A DNA stretch of 64,000 nt, taken from Minisyncoccota bacterium. Its GTDB lineage: Bacteria > Patescibacteriota > Minisyncoccia > Phycocordibacterales > PALSA-1337. A program made the translations under genes and the position numbers. This document shows positions 1,878-63,325 of the stretch, one piece after another. The DNA lies in NCBI GenBank assembly GCA_028713005.1, contig JAQTPC010000003.1:13022-77021 (forward strand), in the 5' to 3' direction. The notes beneath the pieces are model-generated. The model had not been told where the DNA came from. It saw nothing but the letters and a program-made list of their open reading frames with translations, and did no database searches. The first letter of the stretch is position 1; every line of letters starts with the position of its first letter.

Positions 1878-3821
1878 TTACTGAACGACAGTTTCGTCTC
1901 CCCCCTTATATGCTGGATCTGTACTAAAGCTTGAAGTCAGATAACCTTGCTCACTTGTTAGAGAAGACTGGGTATAATCATCGGTTGCAGTCAGAGTAGA
2001 CGGATTGACGAGAGTTGGTGCAGTAGAAACTTGAGTAATACTTGGTGTAAAGGCTATCTGGAATGCCACTTCACGACGCTTCGATGAATTTGCAGAGTAT
2101 GCACTGATCTGCCCTACATTCCACGTTATAGAACCAGTATTTTGATCATACGTCACACCTTCAGTTGATGGAGATACATTTCCAAGCCATGTCACGTATG
2201 GTGGCAAAGTTGCAGTGACTTGTGCACCACTGACCGAACTGGTCGTATTGCCGATAGACCACAAGACTGTGTAGGTTGTTTTTTGTTCTGCCTTTGGTGG
2301 TATTGGTCCCGTATTGGTAAATGCTCCAGTTGAGCGAACTACCCTGCCTGAAAGAGCGATGCTCGAAGCCACTTTTATTGTACGGCTTGCAGCTGAAGTT
2401 ATGCTACCAGAAGCACCTGATTCTTGAGTACGATCAGCTGACACGCTCGCTGACAGAGATACGTTCGGATTGACGACTTGATTACCTGATGAGTTCGATG
2501 TGTTTGTTGGTGTTATTGAGAATGAGATAGAACCACTTTCTCCTGCAGGGATAGATGCGAGCTCAGGATTTGTCTGTTGATTCCAGATGATCTGATTGCG
2601 CGCAGAATCAAAATAGCCAAGATCAGGCTGGATCTTTGTCTTATCGTACGCAGTACCAGAGAGATTGACTGCAATGACTGCATTTGAAACTGCCACTGAA
2701 AGATTGTTGAACCAGGTGATCGTTACGCGAGCTGGTGAACCAAAGTGCCCAACAAAATCTGTTGAAGATGTGTCATTATCAATGCCGAGCTGCAGACTAA
2801 CGAATGATTTTTCTATCGTGATATTTTGACTGACGAGCCCATATTGAGTGCCAATGACCGCACCATTTGCAGCACTTCGCGCACCGACAGCAAAGTGGAA
2901 TACGCGGGTATCAGAATTTTCACCTTGTAGCTTTCCATGAATGACGACTGAACGCTCAGCACCTGGTGGTATATCACCGATCTTCCATGTGGCATTATCA
3001 GACAGCGGTGGGATGTTCGCGGAGATAAAGCTATAACCAAATGGATACTGCCCTTTCAAGACAACACTCTTGAGTACGTCTTGAGAATTTGATTTGAGTT
3101 TTACTGTCATATCGAACTCTTGACCAGAAGCGATGCTGCTAAACGAAGAAGCAGTGAGAGTGATTGGTGACGAATTAATAAGCACTTCGTAACTTGCGAC
3201 TTTGGTGAAAAGAGCCGTGGAACCTTTTACCTTATATGTCAGCGTTGCAGTGATAGATTTTTGAGTATTCTCTTCCCCAAAGATGATTGCCGATACATTC
3301 GTCGAAGTTGAATAACCTGTTGGTATATCGCCGAGATATTGATCGAGCGACGTAAGTGTCTGTGTAGAATCATGTGCATCGGTCGCACCTGCCGGAAATG
3401 ACACATTCATATCTACCAGCTGAAGATCGATATTATTATTGTTGGTAACCTTGATACCAAAAGAAACTGGCTGACCACCCGGTATCGATACGGGACCAGT
3501 GATAGTGACATCGATATTATTTCCTGATATCAGATTTGAACCATTTAAAAAGAGATACAGACCGATACTAACTGCAATGATGCAGAATATGCCGGAGCCG
3601 ATGAGAAATTTAGTGAAAAATGACATTGAATGATCTTCGTATTGTGTATTGAGCTTTGGAGCTTCTTCTAGCGTTTTATCTGGTTCAGCCCATTCTGACT
3701 TTACCTCAGTATTCATATCTGAAAAACGAAGCTTGCGGCGCGTACGTACTTCTGGTGCACCGCGAGAGTACAGTGACTTCTTCAACTCTTCTATGCGATT
3801 TTGATCTTCTGAGGGAGGCAT
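1878..3821 (-). CDS. Membrane-anchored surface protein with repeated beta-sandwich (DUF11/CARDB-like) modules, Thr/Ser/Asn-rich
   Basis: 647 aa; ~65 aa cytoplasmic N-term, single TM (IGSGIFCIIAVSIGLYLFL), long low-complexity extracellular region. Confidence 0.55.
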   Translation of the reverse strand: MPPSEDQNRIEELKKSLYSRGAPEVRTRRKLRFSDMNTEVKSEWAEPDKTLEEAPKLNTQYEDHSMSFFTKFLIGSGIFCIIAVSIGLYLFLNGSNLISGNNIDVTITGPVSIPGGQPVSFGIKVTNNNNIDLQLVDMNVSFPAGATDAHDSTQTLTSLDQYLGDIPTGYSTSTNVSAIIFGEENTQKSITATLTYKVKGSTALFTKVASYEVLINSSPITLTASSFSSIASGQEFDMTVKLKSNSQDVLKSVVLKGQYPFGYSFISANIPPLSDNATWKIGDIPPGAERSVVIHGKLQGENSDTRVFHFAVGARSAANGAVIGTQYGLVSQNITIEKSFVSLQLGIDNDTSSTDFVGHFGSPARVTITWFNNLSVAVSNAVIAVNLSGTAYDKTKIQPDLGYFDSARNQIIWNQQTNPELASIPAGESGSISFSITPTNTSNSSGNQVVNPNVSLSASVSADRTQESGASGSITSAASRTIKVASSIALSGRVVRSTGAFTNTGPIPPKAEQKTTYTVLWSIGNTTSSVSGAQVTATLPPYVTWLGNVSPSTEGVTYDQNTGSITWNVGQISAYSANSSKRREVAFQIAFTPSITQVSTAPTLVNPSTLTATDDYTQSSLTSEQGYLTSSFSTDPAYKGGDETVVQ

Positions 3822-3850
3822 TTGTATTATTGTACCATTTATTTTTATCC

Positions 3851-4492
3851 TTACAGATGCGATTCACGGAGTGCCCTGTTGATATGCTGGTTCATGAGAG
3901 TTCGCTGTTGACCCAAAAGAGTCAGACGATCGAGGCTTATAGCATCGGATTCAATATCTTCCTTGAGTGCAGAAATACTTGCCACATAACCCAGACGGTG
4001 AAGGATACGCGTAACTATTAAGGATTCGAGGGTTTTGAATGCTTCACTTCCGAGGGTAGGCCATGAATTAATAAAATCAAATAACGAATCGAGTGCAATG
4101 AATAATTCTGGATGAGGTTCTTCTCCTTGTAGTAAACGATTAAGAAGCAATGCTATGCGCGCAATAAGTTCTTGATTTTGGTCTGCCAATTTCACCTCTT
4201 GTAGCTTGTCCCCTGTCTGCGCAAGCAGGCTTGTATCTTGCACCTTGAGTTCCTGCGCATTAGTTAGTCGCCAAAACTCTTTACCGCTGACAAATGAAAA
4301 AACGCCGAGAGAATAATCTTGAATAAAGGGGCGTAATTTTGATTTTTCGAAACGGATGCCTTGTGCCGTAGCACGGATGAGTCCGAGGTCTTTGGTAAAT
4401 ATAGATAGCAGCTTCCCTGCTTCACCAGATGGCCGTGAGCTTACGATAAATCCGGGAGTTGTGTGAATGGCGTACATAGGTAAATCAACCAA
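3851..4492 (-). CDS. recO: DNA repair protein RecO-like
   Basis: 213 aa; N-terminal OB-fold pattern (IVSSRPSGEAGKLLSIFTKDLGLIRATAQGIR) typical of RecO; no zinc finger. Confidence 0.65.
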   Translation of the reverse strand: MVDLPMYAIHTTPGFIVSSRPSGEAGKLLSIFTKDLGLIRATAQGIRFEKSKLRPFIQDYSLGVFSFVSGKEFWRLTNAQELKVQDTSLLAQTGDKLQEVKLADQNQELIARIALLLNRLLQGEEPHPELFIALDSLFDFINSWPTLGSEAFKTLESLIVTRILHRLGYVASISALKEDIESDAISLDRLTLLGQQRTLMNQHINRALRESHL

Positions 4493-4510: not shown

Positions 4511-7500
4511 TCAATTCAATCCGAGCACATCGCCAAAACTGATACTGGTCACATTCGTCAGCTTCTTCAATTCATCACTGTATTTTTCAACTATGGCACG
4601 CTCAGCTTCGGTAACTACCAATGAAGTTTTATCGCTGACTGACAAGCCCTTTTCTTTTCTCATATCTTGCACCTTACGGAGAAGTTCACGGAACTCACCT
4701 TCTGCTTTGAGCTCGGGGGTGATAACTGTATCTAACACTACAGTAAATGTAGGATCGTTTTGGTCGACACTGTTCTCCAATACTATCTCTTTTACATTGA
4801 GCTCATCCATAAGCACAACCTTGAGTTCATCCCAGCGAGGGATAGGATTATTTCTATGTTTGATAGTAAGTTTTTGCAGTGGCTGACGAACATTAACCTT
4901 GCCCTCAGTTCTCTTCATGAGACCGGCTGTAGTAAATGACTGAACAACCTTCATGCCTGACAAAACATCCTCATCTACTTTTCCTGCCTTTGGCCAACTT
5001 TCAAGATGTACACTCTCTAGTTCTCCGCCAACCTCTTGGTAAATATACTCTGCAAAGAAAGGTGTAAATGGTGCCATGACTTTTGCCAATGTAATAAGTA
5101 CATATTTTGTCGTCGCTAGAGCAGCTTCTTTGTCTGCCATATCATCACCCTTAAAACGATCACGCGAACGACGGAGATACCACTGTGAAAGATCTGCGAT
5201 AAATTCACGTATCTCACGCGTAGGTTCGAGGAAAACATAGTTATCCATATTACTCGTCACATTTTCGATCAATTGATTCAAGCGCGCCAAAATCCACTGG
5301 TCAATTATATTTTGAGATGTTCCTTGTGATTTTCCTATCTCCAGGCTCCTATCTCCAGACTCCCTGTTCTCATACGTCTTATAAAATGTCGTCACATTCG
5401 CAACCAAGTTAAATACTTTCTTCACAATCTCATCAACAGTTTTTTCTTCAAAGTTCTTTGACTCACCTGGCTGGTTGACCGAATACATCCAAAAACGCAA
5501 TGCATCAGCGCCGTACTTATCCATCATATTCCATGGATTGATGACATTGCCGAGCGACTTGGACATCTTTTTTCCTTCTCCATCGAGAATATGTCCGAGA
5601 CAGATCACATTTTTATACGCCTTACCTTTACCCATAAGAACGCCGATAGCATGTAATGTATAGAACCAGCCACGAGTCTGGTCAATCGCTTCTGAGATGA
5701 AGTCAGCAGGATAAGCAAGTTCCTGCTTCTTTGAAAACAGCTTTGCGATTACTCCTTTCTCCTTTCTTCCTGCTTCTTCTTTTCCGAATGGATAGTGATC
5801 TTGGGCAAACGGCATACCACCTGAATCAAACCAGACGTCCATGACTTCTTTTGCACGAACCATATTTCCACCGCATGAACATGAAAGCTTCACTTCATCG
5901 ATAAAGGGTTTATGGAGATCGAGCTCATATTCAGTATTGTGAGGGACAATCTTGAGATTCACTTCGCGAACACCTGCCTTTTCAATATAATTATTTTTTT
6001 CGTATTCAGCAGTCTGTTCCCTGTCCCAACCTTCCGCAGCAGCAATGAGCATCATAGCTGGACTGCCATGAGTAACGATTAAAATCTTTTTGCCAGAATA
6101 TTTTGATTCGACATCATATAAGAAATCACCAACACGCGTTTTCACATCTGCGTGATTTTCTCCACCTTTTGGCCGAGCAACAAAACGACTCTGGTTCAAT
6201 GGAAATACTTTTAACAATTGTTCGAGCGTCATACCATCCCATTCACCGAGCTCGATCTCTCTGATACGGTTGTCGGTTACTAGCTGATCATCAGTGAGAC
6301 CCAGTGCTTTTTGTACAATCTTTGCTGTCTCTTGAGTACGAATAAATGGCGAAGCAATGATGAGGTCGATACCGAGCTTCTTTATACCCTCAGCTGCACG
6401 CGCAACTTTATCTTTACCATGTTCGGTCAAATGGTTTTCAAGTGTTATATCACTATTCAGTATCTCTTTTACATTACATTCGGCTTCACCGTGGCGCATT
6501 ACGTGATATGTATTCTTTGATGACAGGGCGATATCATCGATAGAACCGACAACTTTTCTTTTGTTACAGGTATCACAATTCCACACTGGCAATGGTGTTC
6601 CCCAGTAACGTTCACGTGAGATAGCCCAGTCTTTGACATCTTTGAGCCATTCGCCAAAACGACCTTCCTTGATGTACTCAGGTTCCCAATGGATACCTTC
6701 ATTTTCTTTGAGTAATTTGTCGCGCAGATCAGACATGCGGATATACCACGAATCGCGGGCAAAATAGATGAGCGGAGTTTTACAACGCCAGCAATGAGGA
6801 TATGTATGCTTGATATTCTCCTGTGCAAAGAAAAGTCCTTTTTGTTTCAGATAATTAACAATATCAACATCGAGAGTTGGCTTACCATTTTCATCTTTTT
6901 CTTTGACGAATCTACCCTCGAGAAAAGCGGTGCCCTTTTTGAAGGTTCCATCATCGTTGACCAAGTGATATTTAGGTAGATTGTTCTTTGTGCCGAGCTC
7001 AAAGTCATCTTGACCGTACATTGGTGCAATGTGCACGATGCCAGTACCATCAGCGGTTGTGACAAAATCGCCGGCAAATACTTTGAAGGCATTTGAGATT
7101 TTATCTTTTTCTGCACCAGTGACAGCGTCTTTGAGATATGGAAAGAGTGGTTCGTAGGTGAGGCCAACGAGGTCAGAGCCTTTTACTGTTTCGATCATTT
7201 CATACGTAAGGTCTTTCAACGCTGACAATCTTTCTTTCGCCAAAATCACATAGGTAATTACTCCGTTGCCAATCGGCACGAGAGGATTCTCGCTTCCTTT
7301 TGCAGAGGCAAAACCGCGAGAACTCTCGTTGCCTCTGTCAACGGCTGACGTATCATTTAATTGGTTGACCTTAACTTTCACATACTCAATATCCTTCCCT
7401 ACAGCCAAAGCCACATTCCCCGGAAGCGTCCAGGGTGTCGTCGTCCACGCAAGTATATATGTCGCATCATCCGCAACTGTATCACCAATCTTTTGTCCTT

Positions 7501-44584: not shown

Positions 44585-44720
44585 GGGGTGGCTAGAGAGA
44601 ATCGAGTCCTACAGACTCAGTACAGGTTTCCCATTTTCTCAGAGCGAAGCTCTTCGAAAATATGGGAGAACCTTTTCGATTCTCTCACGCAAGCAAAATT
44701 GTTTGCTTGCTTAGCCACCC
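44585..44720 (-). ncRNA. tRNA-His-linked structured element A (tRNA-mimicking ends, ~136 nt) lying 3' of tRNA-His
   Basis: 20-nt direct repeat of tRNA-His 3' end (gggtggctagagagaatcga); termini reproduce acceptor strands (GGTGGCTA/TAGCCACC) and T-arm half (TCGATTCTCTC); internal hairpins incl. UUCG tetraloop; homologous to element at 56535-56680. Confidence 0.4.
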
Positions 44721-44758
44721 ACAAATGAAAAAGCCCGCATACGCGGGTTTTTCTCGTG

Positions 44759-44830
44759 GGTGGCTAGAGAGAATCGAACTCTCGATATCGGCTCCACAAA
44801 CCGAAGTTTTACCACTAAACTATAGCCACC
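44759..44830 (-). tRNA. tRNA-His (GTG) with encoded G-1
   Basis: Manual cloverleaf: G-1, acceptor GTGGCTA/TAGCCAC, D GTTT/AAAC, anticodon stem TCGGT/GCCGA loop TTGTGGA, T GAGAG-TTCGATT-CTCTC, discriminator C. Confidence 0.8.
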
Positions 44831-46082: not shown

Positions 46083-46151
46083 ACACTAATTATAACAGGC
46101 GCACAGGCGCCTTGTATCCCAAATTACCTATTGTAACTAAACTAAACAATG

Positions 46152-55713: not shown

Positions 55714-56520
55714 CTATTGGAGAATAAAATCTCCAATTTTTGTTCTCTTAATGCTCAACGCGAGAGCATGTATACCGAGAGATTCACCAAGCTTTTCTGC
55801 AAGCGTTCTCATATAGGCACCTGAAGATGAATGAACTTTTAATTTAATTACCTGAAAATATTCCTGTGTTGTGCCCCCAGCTTTGATCACCTGTTTCCAT
55901 GAATCAACTATTTCTTCTTGCCTAAAATTACCTTTCACCTTCTGGATCCGCTCAATAATAATTTTCATCAATTCCTTTTTTGAAATTTCCTGCTGACCAA
56001 GAAAATCTATCGAATACACTTCAATCTCTTTTTTGGGCATCTCTATATCATCGAGACTGCCCGATTTTGCATGTTCAAATAGAGGTTTGCCGTTCACTGG
56101 TTTTGAAGAATACGCAGGATATTTTTCTGTGCGTTTACCGACAAGGTTATTTAGTTGTTTCTGAATTATTTCTTCTGATATTTTCTGTGTTTTTCTCTGA
56201 TTCTCAAATCTAACATCTAAAATCTGACCTCCTTGTATTATTTTCCCCAAAACATCCGCCGTATCACTCCCTATCCCGAGCAAGATTTCAACCTCATATT
56301 CTTTGTCGAGCCCTAGATACTGATCTTTCATTTTACATTCATCACCAATGAGGATAAGGAGTAGTCCTTCTGCCATTGGGTCGAGACGGCCGGCGTATGT
56401 CATTGGTACTGACGAATCTATCCCCTTTTCATGACGAAGATGCTCGAGAGCTTCGAGGGGGGTTTGACCTATTAATTTATTTACGAAGAAATATTTTGGC
56501 ACAAGGACATTCTGACACAC
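55714..56520 (-). CDS. truB: tRNA pseudouridine(55) synthase TruB
   Basis: 268 aa; catalytic Asp motif YAGRLDPMAEGLLLILIG. Confidence 0.8.
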   Translation of the reverse strand: MCQNVLVPKYFFVNKLIGQTPLEALEHLRHEKGIDSSVPMTYAGRLDPMAEGLLLILIGDECKMKDQYLGLDKEYEVEILLGIGSDTADVLGKIIQGGQILDVRFENQRKTQKISEEIIQKQLNNLVGKRTEKYPAYSSKPVNGKPLFEHAKSGSLDDIEMPKKEIEVYSIDFLGQQEISKKELMKIIIERIQKVKGNFRQEEIVDSWKQVIKAGGTTQEYFQVIKLKVHSSSGAYMRTLAEKLGESLGIHALALSIKRTKIGDFILQ

Positions 56521-56534
56521 TCTTTTGAATCGGT

Positions 56535-56680
56535 CACAGGAATCTCGCCTTACAGGAATCGAAGCTTACAGCTTCAGTACAGTCTTCGTGTGGTACTCGC
56601 TTCGCTCCGTGCCACATGCTCAGACTTTTCGATTCCTACACGTGAGATGCGCAGGCATCTCACTCGGGGTCACATAAAAT
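56535..56680 (-). ncRNA. tRNA-Arg-linked structured element B, homolog of element A, immediately 3' of tRNA-Arg(GCG)
   Basis: 22/30 identity to element A core (ggaatcgaaGCttacagCTtcagtacag); contains TTCGATTCCTAC identical to the tRNA-Arg T-arm 3' half in inverted orientation; terminal inverted repeat aggaatcgaa/ttcgattcct. Confidence 0.4.
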
Positions 56681-56697
56681 TCGCTACGCTCATTTTC

Positions 56698-56772
56698 TGG
56701 TGCCCCCGGTAGGAATCGAACCTACATTGCAAGATCCGCAATCTTGCGTCCTATCCATTGAACGACGAGGGC
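56698..56772 (-). tRNA. tRNA-Arg (GCG), encoded CCA
   Basis: Acceptor GCCCTCG/CGGGGGC, D GTTC/GGAC, anticodon stem CAAGA/TCTTG loop TTGCGGA, T GTAGG-TTCGATT-CCTAC. Confidence 0.75.
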
Positions 56773-63084: not shown

Positions 63085-63089
63085 CATAA

Positions 63090-63114
63090 GAAAATCCGCT
63101 TCGGCGGATTTTTG
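63090..63114 (+). terminator. Intrinsic terminator after tRNA-Lys (atccgc ttcg gcggat + T5)
   Basis: 6-bp stem, UUCG loop, TTTTT. Confidence 0.6.
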
Positions 63115-63325
63115 AATGAGCGGTCAAGCAATGCACCTTCGTGCATTGCGGGTTGGAATCGAACGGTGAGCGATGTCGAGTTCAGCAGGACGAGACCGTG
63201 AACCGGTGCCCAGGAGGAGTTTGCGGGTAGCAAACGACGACGAGGGCGATTCCAGTTTGATGTAGCACAATCAGCACATAAAGCTGTATAATATTTCCAA
63301 ACAAACTAGAACCTTTTAATAATAT

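Follow-up and report, generated by a model that had tools for sequence, protein, structure and literature searches.

Genomic islands that sit at the T-loop of tRNA genes, together with their integrase-less, cis-mobilisable derivatives, repeat the tRNA 3' segment (T-loop to end) directly on both sides and leave the tRNA intact. They accrete serially at one tRNA, carry some cargo genes and have precise empty sites. Miniature inverted-repeat transposable elements (MITEs), Rickettsia palindromic elements and REP/REPIN repeats are small, non-coding, hairpin-forming, multi-copy and sporadic, and decay in place. In group II introns (exon- and intron-binding sequences, EBS/IBS), IS110 bridge RNAs and TnpB omega-RNAs (whose guides derive from flanking DNA), the element's own RNA chooses the DNA target through base pairing, and a structured scaffold stands beside a variable target-matching segment. 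The tRNA-like domain of tmRNA, viral tRNA-like structures, mascRNA and bacterial YrlA, mimics set free by tRNA-processing enzymes, stack an acceptor-stem-like helix on a T-stem-like helix. In this study, we analysed element B, which lies behind a tRNA-Arg(GCG) gene in a stretch of 64,000 nucleotides (nt) from a Minisyncoccota bacterium (contig JAQTPC010000003.1 of assembly GCA_028713005.1, positions 13,022 to 77,021; hereafter the window), and compared its family with each of these systems.

The likenesses listed above for the tRNA islands and the MITE-type repeats are all found in the family of element B, and the stacked helices of the tRNA mimics are found in its intact copies. However, the family departs from every one of these systems. 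Unlike the tRNA islands, its elements are about 130-170 nt long, encode no integrase, and none was found nearby; they add an inverted tRNA copy and a covarying, strand-biased, RNA-like fold, lack symmetric double-stranded core sites and were not found in phage or plasmid collections. Unlike MITE-type repeats, they have terminal inverted repeats matched to each neighbouring tRNA instead of a fixed transposase-binding sequence with an autonomous partner, and their target is strictly the 3' side of a tRNA, in a single orientation. Their copies are old (at most 81% identical within a genome, none near-identical), and no parent insertion sequence is known. By analogy, the scaffold and target-matching segment of the RNA-guided systems have a counterpart here: an arm complementary to the target follows target differences, and structure is kept on the transcribed strand. 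This likeness is one of analogy only, and no intron-encoded protein, DEDD recombinase or TnpB lies in or beside the elements, whose putative 'guide' of about 11-20 nt is paired in cis with a target-identical segment. A further likeness to the tRNA mimics is that the elements are co-oriented with and close to a tRNA gene, but a three-way junction of about 80 nt replaces the T-loop, D and anticodon arms are absent, the helix copies whichever tRNA adjoins, its acceptor part is dispensable in most copies, and the Rfam tRNA and tmRNA models do not match. Overall, the family looks akin to both miniature palindromic repeats and integrative elements that target tRNAs. It lacks what defines them, namely an integrase, fixed terminal repeats and symmetric core sites, and adds an RNA-like, tRNA-addressed fold.

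We lean towards reading element B as a degenerate member of a large, Patescibacteria-specific family of small, structured, non-coding insertion elements 3' of tRNA genes, which would enter by recombination in the T-loop. The family is apparently undescribed. Full-text literature searches gave no description of it; the nearest paper deals with group I introns that interrupt Patescibacteria tRNAs in the anticodon loop and says nothing of such elements.

An intact member of the family, element A, lies behind tRNA-His(GUG) in the same window. The initial annotation had proposed that a segment 3' of tRNA-Arg(GCG) matches the core of element A at 22 of 30 positions. We found that the segment is real, once corrected to the minus strand at 56552-56697, and that the 22 identities stand, over 29 aligned positions when counted by hand. 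The two elements align over their full length on the tRNA strand, in the order helix P2, GUG, an arm complementary to the T-stem and T-loop, GAAAAG, P4, CUGUACUGA and P5, followed by UCGAUUC and the T-stem 3' sequence. Their P2 stems differ and are both fully compensated, and P5 reads gtc-UGUAG-gac in A and agc-UGUAA-gct in B. The 27-nt pattern CTGTACTGANNCTGTARGNNTCGA occurs at exactly two sites in the window, 44599-44625 (A) and 56556-56582 (B), with not even one match in any of 100 shuffles. A covariance model scored A at 109 bits and B at 101 bits, and the claim that the similarity exceeds chance is therefore upheld. Element A has a minimum free energy (MFE) of -62.2 kcal/mol (z = -7.8). 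Its outer helix is a perfect 9 bp (gggtggcta/tagccaccc) equal to the tRNA-His acceptor stem and followed by C-CCA, and its last 20 nt are identical to the tRNA-His 3' end.

To find further copies, we scanned one genome per prokaryotic species with the core pattern; locus counts are lower bounds. Besides the window, at least 117 loci carry the core, with at least 125 copies between them, and nearly all are in metagenome-assembled genomes (MAGs) of Patescibacteria (candidate phyla radiation, CPR), and the family extends over many class-level lineages of this group. The elements are non-coding and hold no open reading frame (ORF). Among the matches listed, the host groups are Saccharibacteria, Paceibacteria, and Kaiser-, Taylor-, Vogel-, Campbell-, Zambryski- and Nomurabacteria. 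In the same set, a tRNA on the same strand precedes 92 of 127 cores by less than 400 nt (median tRNA-to-core distance 123 nt, mostly 80-150), the tRNAs next to cores represent 15 amino-acid identities, and not one of the 127 cores has a nearby tRNA only on the opposite strand. An exact run shared with the tRNA, starting from the core TCGA (T-loop, about nt 55 on), reaches at least 14 nt in 47 and at least 20 nt in 41 of the 92 copies among the matches listed, and the identity ends at most 1 nt from the tRNA end in 26 of those 47.

Two side observations concern the loci themselves. Patescibacteria-type elements were also found in MAGs labelled Bacteroidota or Actinomycetota (L024; L029, labelled Patiriisocius sp.; L031, labelled Acidimicrobiales), where the L029 and L031 elements are 95% identical internally; these are most likely binning contamination. 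In seven loci (L006, L016, L027, L064, L066, L074 and L109) the gene for the CCA-adding enzyme lies 0.1-4 kb from an element-bearing tRNA-Pro(tgg) or tRNA-Arg(tcg), which is probably conserved gene order and not a functional link.

The termini of elements A and B had been described as customised to the adjacent tRNA around a common core, and this description extends to more than 100 copies elsewhere. In a family-wide test, the 7 nt preceding TCGAAAAG complement nt 59-65 of the copy's own tRNA, often at 7/7 positions and not in every copy. The complement of the acceptor 3' strand matches at 7/7 positions in 17 and at 6/7 in 18 of 73 copies, against 0 and 10 in controls with other tRNAs. The inverted arm also tracks T-loop variants, a tRNA with TTCAA being paired with an arm that reads TTGAA. 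Since the arm tests and the T-loop variants agree, arm customisation is general. The left arm (armL) is not a plain copy of the tRNA 5' strands, because it holds the reverse complement of T-loop nt 54-60, which is absent from the tRNA 5' half.

We then obtained the common layout of the family: a tRNA, a capping hairpin that is often a terminator, an inverted tRNA 3' segment split by P2, the series GAAAAG-P4-CUGUACUGA-P5, and, at the end, tRNA nt ~55-76 repeated in direct orientation. In the fold, the inverted and direct arms pair into a helix that reproduces the T-stem and acceptor duplex and closes a three-way junction. All element types have a long hairpin with the tRNA's own 3' end on one side and the acceptor-complement arm on the other. 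Its cap is an intrinsic terminator in 36 of 79 copies (about 46%) and in element A or, as in B, a mini-hairpin module with a GNA triloop. The inverted arm can therefore pair with either of two partners, the tRNA 3' end itself or its copy downstream.

The structure is supported by compensatory change beyond shuffled and slid controls, as expected of a structured RNA. In a MAFFT alignment of 19 copies, helices P2, P3, the P4 base and P5 are 90.9% canonical, compared with 73.6% after shuffling; 18 pairs change on both sides, a number reached by none of 500 shuffles, and slid partners give 30-49%. The covariance model built from this alignment yielded 124 matches in 100 sources, in which 92.4% of positions are paired compared with 66.4% after shuffling, and 24 of 26 pairs change on both sides (again none of 500 shuffles); this second alignment leans towards the structure because it was fitted to the model. 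The slid-partner control over both alignments gives 30-50%. All 8 pairs of P2 covary across the family, P5 is 99% paired, and its two variable pairs are canonical in 88/89 and 87/89 cases, against about 40 in shuffles. In contrast to these helices, GAAAAG, CUGUACU and the UGUAA loop are single-stranded and nearly invariant.

The fold also has a polarity. In the structure-aligned count, G-U pairs outnumber A-C mismatches on the tRNA strand by 109 to 42 (p = 5e-8), whereas the G-U count from per-sequence MFE folds is ambiguous as to strand. The sense fold is the more stable in 57 copies and the antisense fold in 32, and the GCGNAGC mini-hairpin motif occurs 26 times in sense and once in antisense in family members. 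Because of the G-U excess, the stability of the sense fold and the sense mini-hairpins, the structure appears to be that of a single strand with tRNA polarity. Most simply, the folded strand would be a transcript; sense single-stranded DNA is the alternative. GNA triloops are unusually stable in single-stranded DNA. In the window, GCGAAGC (56599-56605, minus) and GCGTAGC (56683-56689, minus) cap P4 of element B and its tRNA-element module, and the sole antisense case is element A (GCTTCGC). A hammerhead-like core was considered and rejected, as the GAAA/CUGA junction strands run in mirror cyclic order in our reading of the fold and no Rfam ribozyme model matched.

To compare matching sites, we used the S20 gene just upstream of tRNA-Arg as an anchor and fetched 80 related metagenome loci. 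The order S20, tRNA-Arg(gcg) is kept in about 30 of them, and only one of these, L126, carries an element, which is of family 2. For the window's family-1 insert, the sole positional orthologue is L104, a locus supplied by the genome scan, with a family-2 element behind it. Locus L120 (S20 85% identical) is an empty site, with tRNA-Arg, 3 nt and then the ATG of the same truB gene, where the window has an insert of about 170 nt and L104 one of about 310 nt. Two further relatives, L119 (S20 95%) and L121 (83%), have the identical tRNA followed by unrelated downstream DNA. At the non-syntenic L152, a family-1 element has its arm re-matched to its own T-stem. In this S20-anchored, less biased sample, exact arms occur at 2 of 85 tRNAs, and there are 6 family-1 matches in 277 kb. 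Acceptor-stem differences were unusable for telling the element-borne repeat from the original; the U5-G68 wobble is uninformative because relatives without the element have it too. Behind the same tRNA, three loci without B (L121 at ~2900-3100, L142 and L119) hold repeated pieces, such as GGTTCGAGCCAA T-arm-like fragments, and share a hairpin block gaccacgg...ccacgggctttttt, which may be another kind of insert at this hotspot.

Close relatives differ inside the element as well. Element A and its counterpart in L083 share upstream DNA (~99%), a flanking protein (93% identical) and the same tRNA-His, yet they carry different P2/P4 cassettes, and their homology stops at the element 3' end. Between B and L104, the tRNA and the S20 end are almost perfectly shared, and P2 was swapped wholesale with compensation. 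Behind tRNA-Leu(gag), L083 has a truncated element and the window a still shorter remnant. Copies within one genome reach a best internal identity of only 0.51-0.81, which rules out a recent transposition burst, and pairs that are at least 85% identical always share the same tRNA in related genomes. Since copies within genomes are old and similar pairs are at the same site, movement is rare and inheritance looks mostly vertical. These comparisons show that elements are gained and lost at orthologous sites, by sporadic insertion and not as a conserved trailer. The initial annotation had offered two explanations, a mobile micro-element or a conserved trailer co-evolving with each tRNA (processing signal, RNase P/Z decoy). 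The first is the one favoured, in view of the sporadic occupation of S20-tRNA-Arg sites, the empty site, the arrays and islands, the cassette swaps and the decayed copies, although no mobilising enzyme was found. The second does not hold as worded, since most relatives with an identical tRNA-Arg have no element and about 46% of copies lie behind a terminator-like hairpin; what remains of it is a structured single strand of the tRNA sense, whose predicted tRNA-like closing helix could possibly be used by tRNA-processing enzymes.

Some loci hold more than one insertion. Tandem units of 135-172 nt occur in L047, L052, L066, L079, L085 and L110. In L096, one tRNA-Gln is followed by three more copies of its 3' end, and these repeats delimit three units: a mini-element, an island of 1.1 kb that holds a 283-aa ORF together with a terminator and the core, and an island of ~950 nt without a core. 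L028 and L102 resemble L096, and all three loci carry 1-1.5 kb of cargo between repeated tRNA 3' ends. By Pfam, the cargo ORFs encode a HAD hydrolase, a deaminase, a cyclase, an AAA-domain protein or proteins of unknown type, and none is a recombinase. The third island of L096 (minus orientation, 3720-4000) has a strong promoter-like start, ~250 nt that appear to be structured and non-coding, and then the AAA-domain ORF. A mirror type was found in L008, L039, L085 and L100, consisting of tRNA nt 1-53, the element, a tight palindrome of T-loop arms and a complete tRNA. The common type thus repeats nt ~55-76 and the mirror type nt 1-53, and because both split the tRNA at the T-loop, we infer that recombination takes place inside it.

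In the mechanism we propose, an element would enter by site-specific recombination within the near-universal T-loop sequence. It would supply a spare tRNA 3' end and a terminator, so that the tRNA would stay intact, and the displaced original 3' end would become the downstream direct repeat. The mirror-image variant would supply tRNA nt 1-53, each type carrying the part of the tRNA needed to rebuild the gene. Repeated entry would give tandem arrays and stacked islands, and recombination between repeats would give precise loss. The fold, most simply that of a read-through transcript, may be recognised by the propagation machinery as a substrate or guide for an activity acting in trans. The tRNA-complementary arm would either specify the target tRNA or be selected to match it. 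Since no protein is encoded, the elements are presumably non-autonomous.

A more tentative extension, which we think rather unlikely, would make the elements protein-free insertion cassettes addressed by nucleic acid. Their transcript or single strand would use its tRNA-complementary arm to pick one particular tRNA gene at the T-loop and 3' segment, and would insert there through a host enzyme or one acting in trans, and a change of about 7-20 nt would retarget it. One chassis would then deliver different RNA modules, such as families 1 and 2, behind highly expressed tRNA genes.

Several observations weigh against insertion through the T-loop. No recombinase, transposase or reverse transcriptase was found in or regularly beside the elements in the at least 117 loci, and no autonomous relative or parent element was found in the locus, phage, plasmid and IMG/VR collections. 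The core had no match in IMG/VR, INPHARED (GenBank) phages or PLSDB plasmids, a result that also rules out identity with a phage or plasmid attP. The within-genome ceiling of 81% identity and the same-tRNA rule for similar pairs leave movement rare, and folds are intact in old copies whose outer repeats have decayed (B, L152), which fits an RNA function equally well. As double-stranded DNA, the junction has no symmetric core sites of the kind that a tyrosine integrase would lead one to expect. Our proposal does not explain how each new tRNA comes to be matched by the inverted arm. Finally, any repeat-bounded insert can also be drawn with other breakpoints, such as an insertion just outside the tRNA, so the crossover is formally ambiguous, and only the nt 53/54 split favours the T-loop.

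The searches for an enzyme had the following scope. ORFs of the at least 117 loci were clustered, most clusters being named by eye and only a helix-turn-helix (HTH) cluster and the cargo ORFs scanned against Pfam; the result was housekeeping clusters, the cca gene explained by synteny and the HTH family, with no recombinase-like cluster. The ORF list of the window has a housekeeping look and no recombinase by eye, only the truB ORF having been scanned against Pfam. The HTH family comprises proteins of ~220 aa with an N-terminal HTH (Pfam HTH_23/HTH_7) and an LYWxEG motif, near elements in six loci (L011 at 5523-6131, L036 at 2502-3173, L027, L043, L074 and L109). Their position is inconsistent, twice directly upstream of an element-bearing tRNA, and the protein could be a candidate endonuclease or recombinase or merely a common CPR gene. 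Known RNA families gave no match either: with Rfam at the gathering score over the whole window, and at E up to 10 around elements A, B and C, only the flanking tRNAs match, and the tRNA, tmRNA, ribozyme, HEARO and IS605-related models do not match the element bodies. Far below threshold, matches to unrelated small RNA families run from the tRNA-His terminator hairpin into the 5' half of A. The geometry of a scaffold followed by a 17-22-nt target-identical tail had drawn interest as TnpB-like. A TnpB omega-RNA with a flanking guide was rejected, since TnpB is missing and the guide, which pairs in cis, would target the tRNA itself.

Among the other explanations, the one that survives best is that the elements are host-used non-coding RNA genes co-transcribed with the tRNA, with a closing helix that mimics the acceptor/T-stem minihelix and lets the RNA be released and stabilised by RNase P, 3' trimming and CCA addition. 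Such a gene would be a natural 'tRNA scaffold' whose working part is the three-way junction, and it would owe its spread to duplication of tRNA genes and to recombination now and then, not to dedicated mobility. The strong covariation, the conserved unpaired junctions, the excess of G-U over A-C on the sense strand and the strand-specific mini-hairpins all suit an RNA, as do the shared orientation of every copy with a nearby tRNA (among the matches listed), the use of one chassis for at least two inner modules, and the perfect 9-bp acceptor-like helix of A with its C-CCA. Because the fold persists in the old copies B and L152, this explanation stays alive. However, it has to accommodate a terminator-like hairpin and T-run between tRNA and element in 36 of 79 copies, and no promoter was found between tRNA and element, nor would one fit in the gap. 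Relatives have the identical tRNA without the element, prevalence is low in the less biased sample, most copies have an imperfect acceptor-like outer helix or none at all (just 17 of 73 reach 7/7), and tandem arrays, cargo islands and truncated remnants would be unexpected. We therefore regard an RNA gene as possible, though on the improbable side; mobility and an RNA function of the element's own are compatible readings and not exclusive.

Less convincing is the view that the elements are scars of integrase-mediated islands (cis-mobilisable remnants), with the core as the attP-proximal end left after deletion of the integrase module. T-loop integration with identity to the tRNA 3' end is reportedly a known sublocation class of integrases, and papers found in the literature searches use this same term. 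Several features of such islands are present: direct repeats of the tRNA 3' end beside an intact tRNA (20 nt exact in A, 10/12 in B, at least 14 nt in 47 of the 92 copies among the matches listed), a precise empty site (L120), serial accretion (L096, L102) and cargo genes between repeats. On the other hand, the elements hold no integrase gene and no imperfect inverted core sites at the crossover, the islands of the at least 117 loci and the window hold no integrase, and the core is missing from viral, phage and plasmid collections. Double-stranded arm sites bound by a protein would not be expected to show strand-biased, RNA-like covariation. In addition, to the left of the T-loop the direct copy covaries with the 5' strand of P5 and not with the T-stem, and the tRNA-matched inverted arm would have no role. 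Together these points make island scars distinctly doubtful.

Returning to element B as a degenerate insertion, its parts are listed in Table 1. The last ~25 nt of the interval originally reported (56527-56551) are a piece of a different element family and not B. The arms aggaatcgaa/ttcgattcct that had been noted are present, and the inverted arm is TTCGATTCCTAC (plus strand, 56628-56639), which, as claimed, matches the T-loop and 3' T-stem exactly as their reverse complement. Read on the minus strand, gtaggaatcga is the exact reverse complement of tRNA-Arg nt 55-65 (the 3' part of the T-loop and the T-stem 3' strand), and the family-wide test gives the arm 7/7 Watson-Crick pairs with the real tRNA. 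The left module stands where other copies have a terminator hairpin, and no terminator-like site was called there. The remnant gaccccg is complementary to the acceptor 3' strand cgggggc at 6/7 positions, and because its partner is gone from the direct arm, B has no outer P1 helix. In the L104 orthologue the P2 stem is different and fully compensated, with the same loop. GCGAAGC forms the mini-hairpin at the tip of P4; within CUGUACUGA, CUGUACU is junction J4/5 and the terminal GA starts P5, whose 3' strand in B overlaps the T-loop start of the direct tRNA copy. The direct arm ttcgattcctgt (minus, 56552-56563) agrees with tRNA ttcgattcctac at 10/12 positions. The rest of the tRNA 3' copy is deleted in the window genome, whereas L104 retains the full ttcctaccgggggcacca copy followed by a terminator and a second element. 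A deletion of ~120 nt relative to L104 leaves B fused to ggCGAGAttCCTGTGACCG (56531-56549), which is the tail of this second element. Element B is thus a degenerate copy that has lost its acceptor pairing, outer helix and most of the direct repeat, and it is probably an inactive relic.

Table 1. Positions of the elements, their parts and neighbouring genes in the window
Feature	Position	Strand	Basis or remark
tRNA-Arg(GCG), host tRNA of element B	56698-56772	minus	ARAGORN; Rfam tRNA model 61.3 bits
Element B proper	56697 to 56552	minus	downstream of tRNA-Arg(GCG) on tRNA strand
B left module, weak hairpin gaaaat-GAGCGTAGCGA-atttt	56674..56697	minus	begins directly after tRNA CCA; sequence
B acceptor-complement arm remnant gaccccg	56665..56671	minus	sequence; family-wide acceptor-complement test; comparison with L104
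B P2 hairpin, gtgagatg / CCTGCG loop / catctcac	56642..56663	minus	fold; covariation; L104 orthologue
B inverted arm gtaggaatcga, 5' strand of helix P3	56629..56639	minus	k-mer search
B junction GAAAAG (J3/4)	56625..56630	minus	invariant or nearly so in alignments
B P4, long variable hairpin, 'tctgag...cgaaga' subtype	56582..56625	minus	fold; P4 base pairs covary
B conserved CUGUACUGA	56574..56582	minus	identical in A, B and at least 125 further copies
B P5 hairpin GAAGC-UGUAA-GCUUC	56561..56575	minus	covariation of two variable pairs
B direct arm gattcctgt, P3 3' strand	56552..56560	minus	partly decayed copy of tRNA nt 57-65; sequence
Second-family fragment ggcgagattcctgtgaccg, family ending in ...CCTGTGACCG	56531..56549	minus	alignments with L104; motif also in L108 and other loci
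attc, possibly leftover of a further displaced copy of tRNA nt 59-62	56527..56530	minus	4-nt match, inference only
truB	55714-56520	minus	start at 56520, just downstream of B; Pfam TruB_N E = 1.1e-24
Element A, intact family member behind tRNA-His(GUG)	44586..44721	minus	covariance model 109 bits
tRNA-His(GUG)	44758-44829	minus	host of element A
Intrinsic-terminator-like hairpin, then T-run, between tRNA-His and A	44734..44747	minus	terminator call
Element C behind tRNA-Lys(UUU)	63126..63256 (span with terminator: 63086-63260)	plus	family-1 model; fold

The product of truB is the tRNA pseudouridine-55 synthase, which modifies U55 in the tRNA T-loop. That a T-arm-derived element adjoins this gene looks like a coincidence of gene order. 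We nevertheless considered that B might be a cis-regulatory leader of truB, a T-arm mimic for autoregulation, since it sits between tRNA-Arg and truB, holds T-loop/T-stem sequence and has no terminator on either side. Yet what follows A, C and over 100 other copies is an unrelated gene or a promoter, truB is not enriched downstream of elements among the at least 117 loci, truB in L120 stands directly behind the tRNA without any element, and the T-loop sequence of B is paired in P3/P5 and not shown as a T stem-loop. This makes a leader highly improbable. That A and B are alike by chance or low complexity near tRNA-like sequence, sharing the universal TTCGA motif and nothing more, can be practically dismissed in view of the pattern counts, the model scores and the hundreds of covarying homologues elsewhere.

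Beyond A and B, the window has a third element with the same chassis, C, so that elements lie behind 3 of 7 tRNA genes, with a remnant behind a fourth. Element C has a terminator; its P2 hairpin reads gcaatgcaCCTTCGtgcattgc, its inverted arm GTTGGAATCGAA and its decayed direct arm GATTCCAG, and it ends in GATTCCAg. Its core of ~85 nt forms two hairpins (fold z = -4.75) and is unlike the family-1 core; the family-1 covariance model finds it through the chassis alone (26.8 bits, E = 2.5e-5). Family 2 reads GAAAGACGGA ... GTGACCGA and then tRNA nt 59-76, and it lies behind many tRNAs in the fetched loci. One chassis therefore carries at least two different inner modules. In the tRNA-Leu(gag) trailer (window 46120-46150, minus), ~25 nt ttgtttagtttagttacaatagg are left as the decayed remnant of the fourth element, and in the close relative L083 (5375-5440) the same ~25 nt run into a truncated family-1 core and a 16-nt copy of the tRNA-Leu 3' end.

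Patescibacteria genomes are tiny, with little spare DNA. Should the fold be that of an RNA which finds tRNA genes through base pairing, the family would amount to a compact insertion system that can be retargeted naturally. Should it instead be a tRNA-scaffolded RNA, abundant non-coding RNAs of a new family would be present in an uncultivated superphylum. Either reading would account for many of the 'tRNA fragment' duplications and synteny breaks beside tRNA genes in these genomes, and the elements are worth masking or annotating in tRNA and genomic-island prediction.

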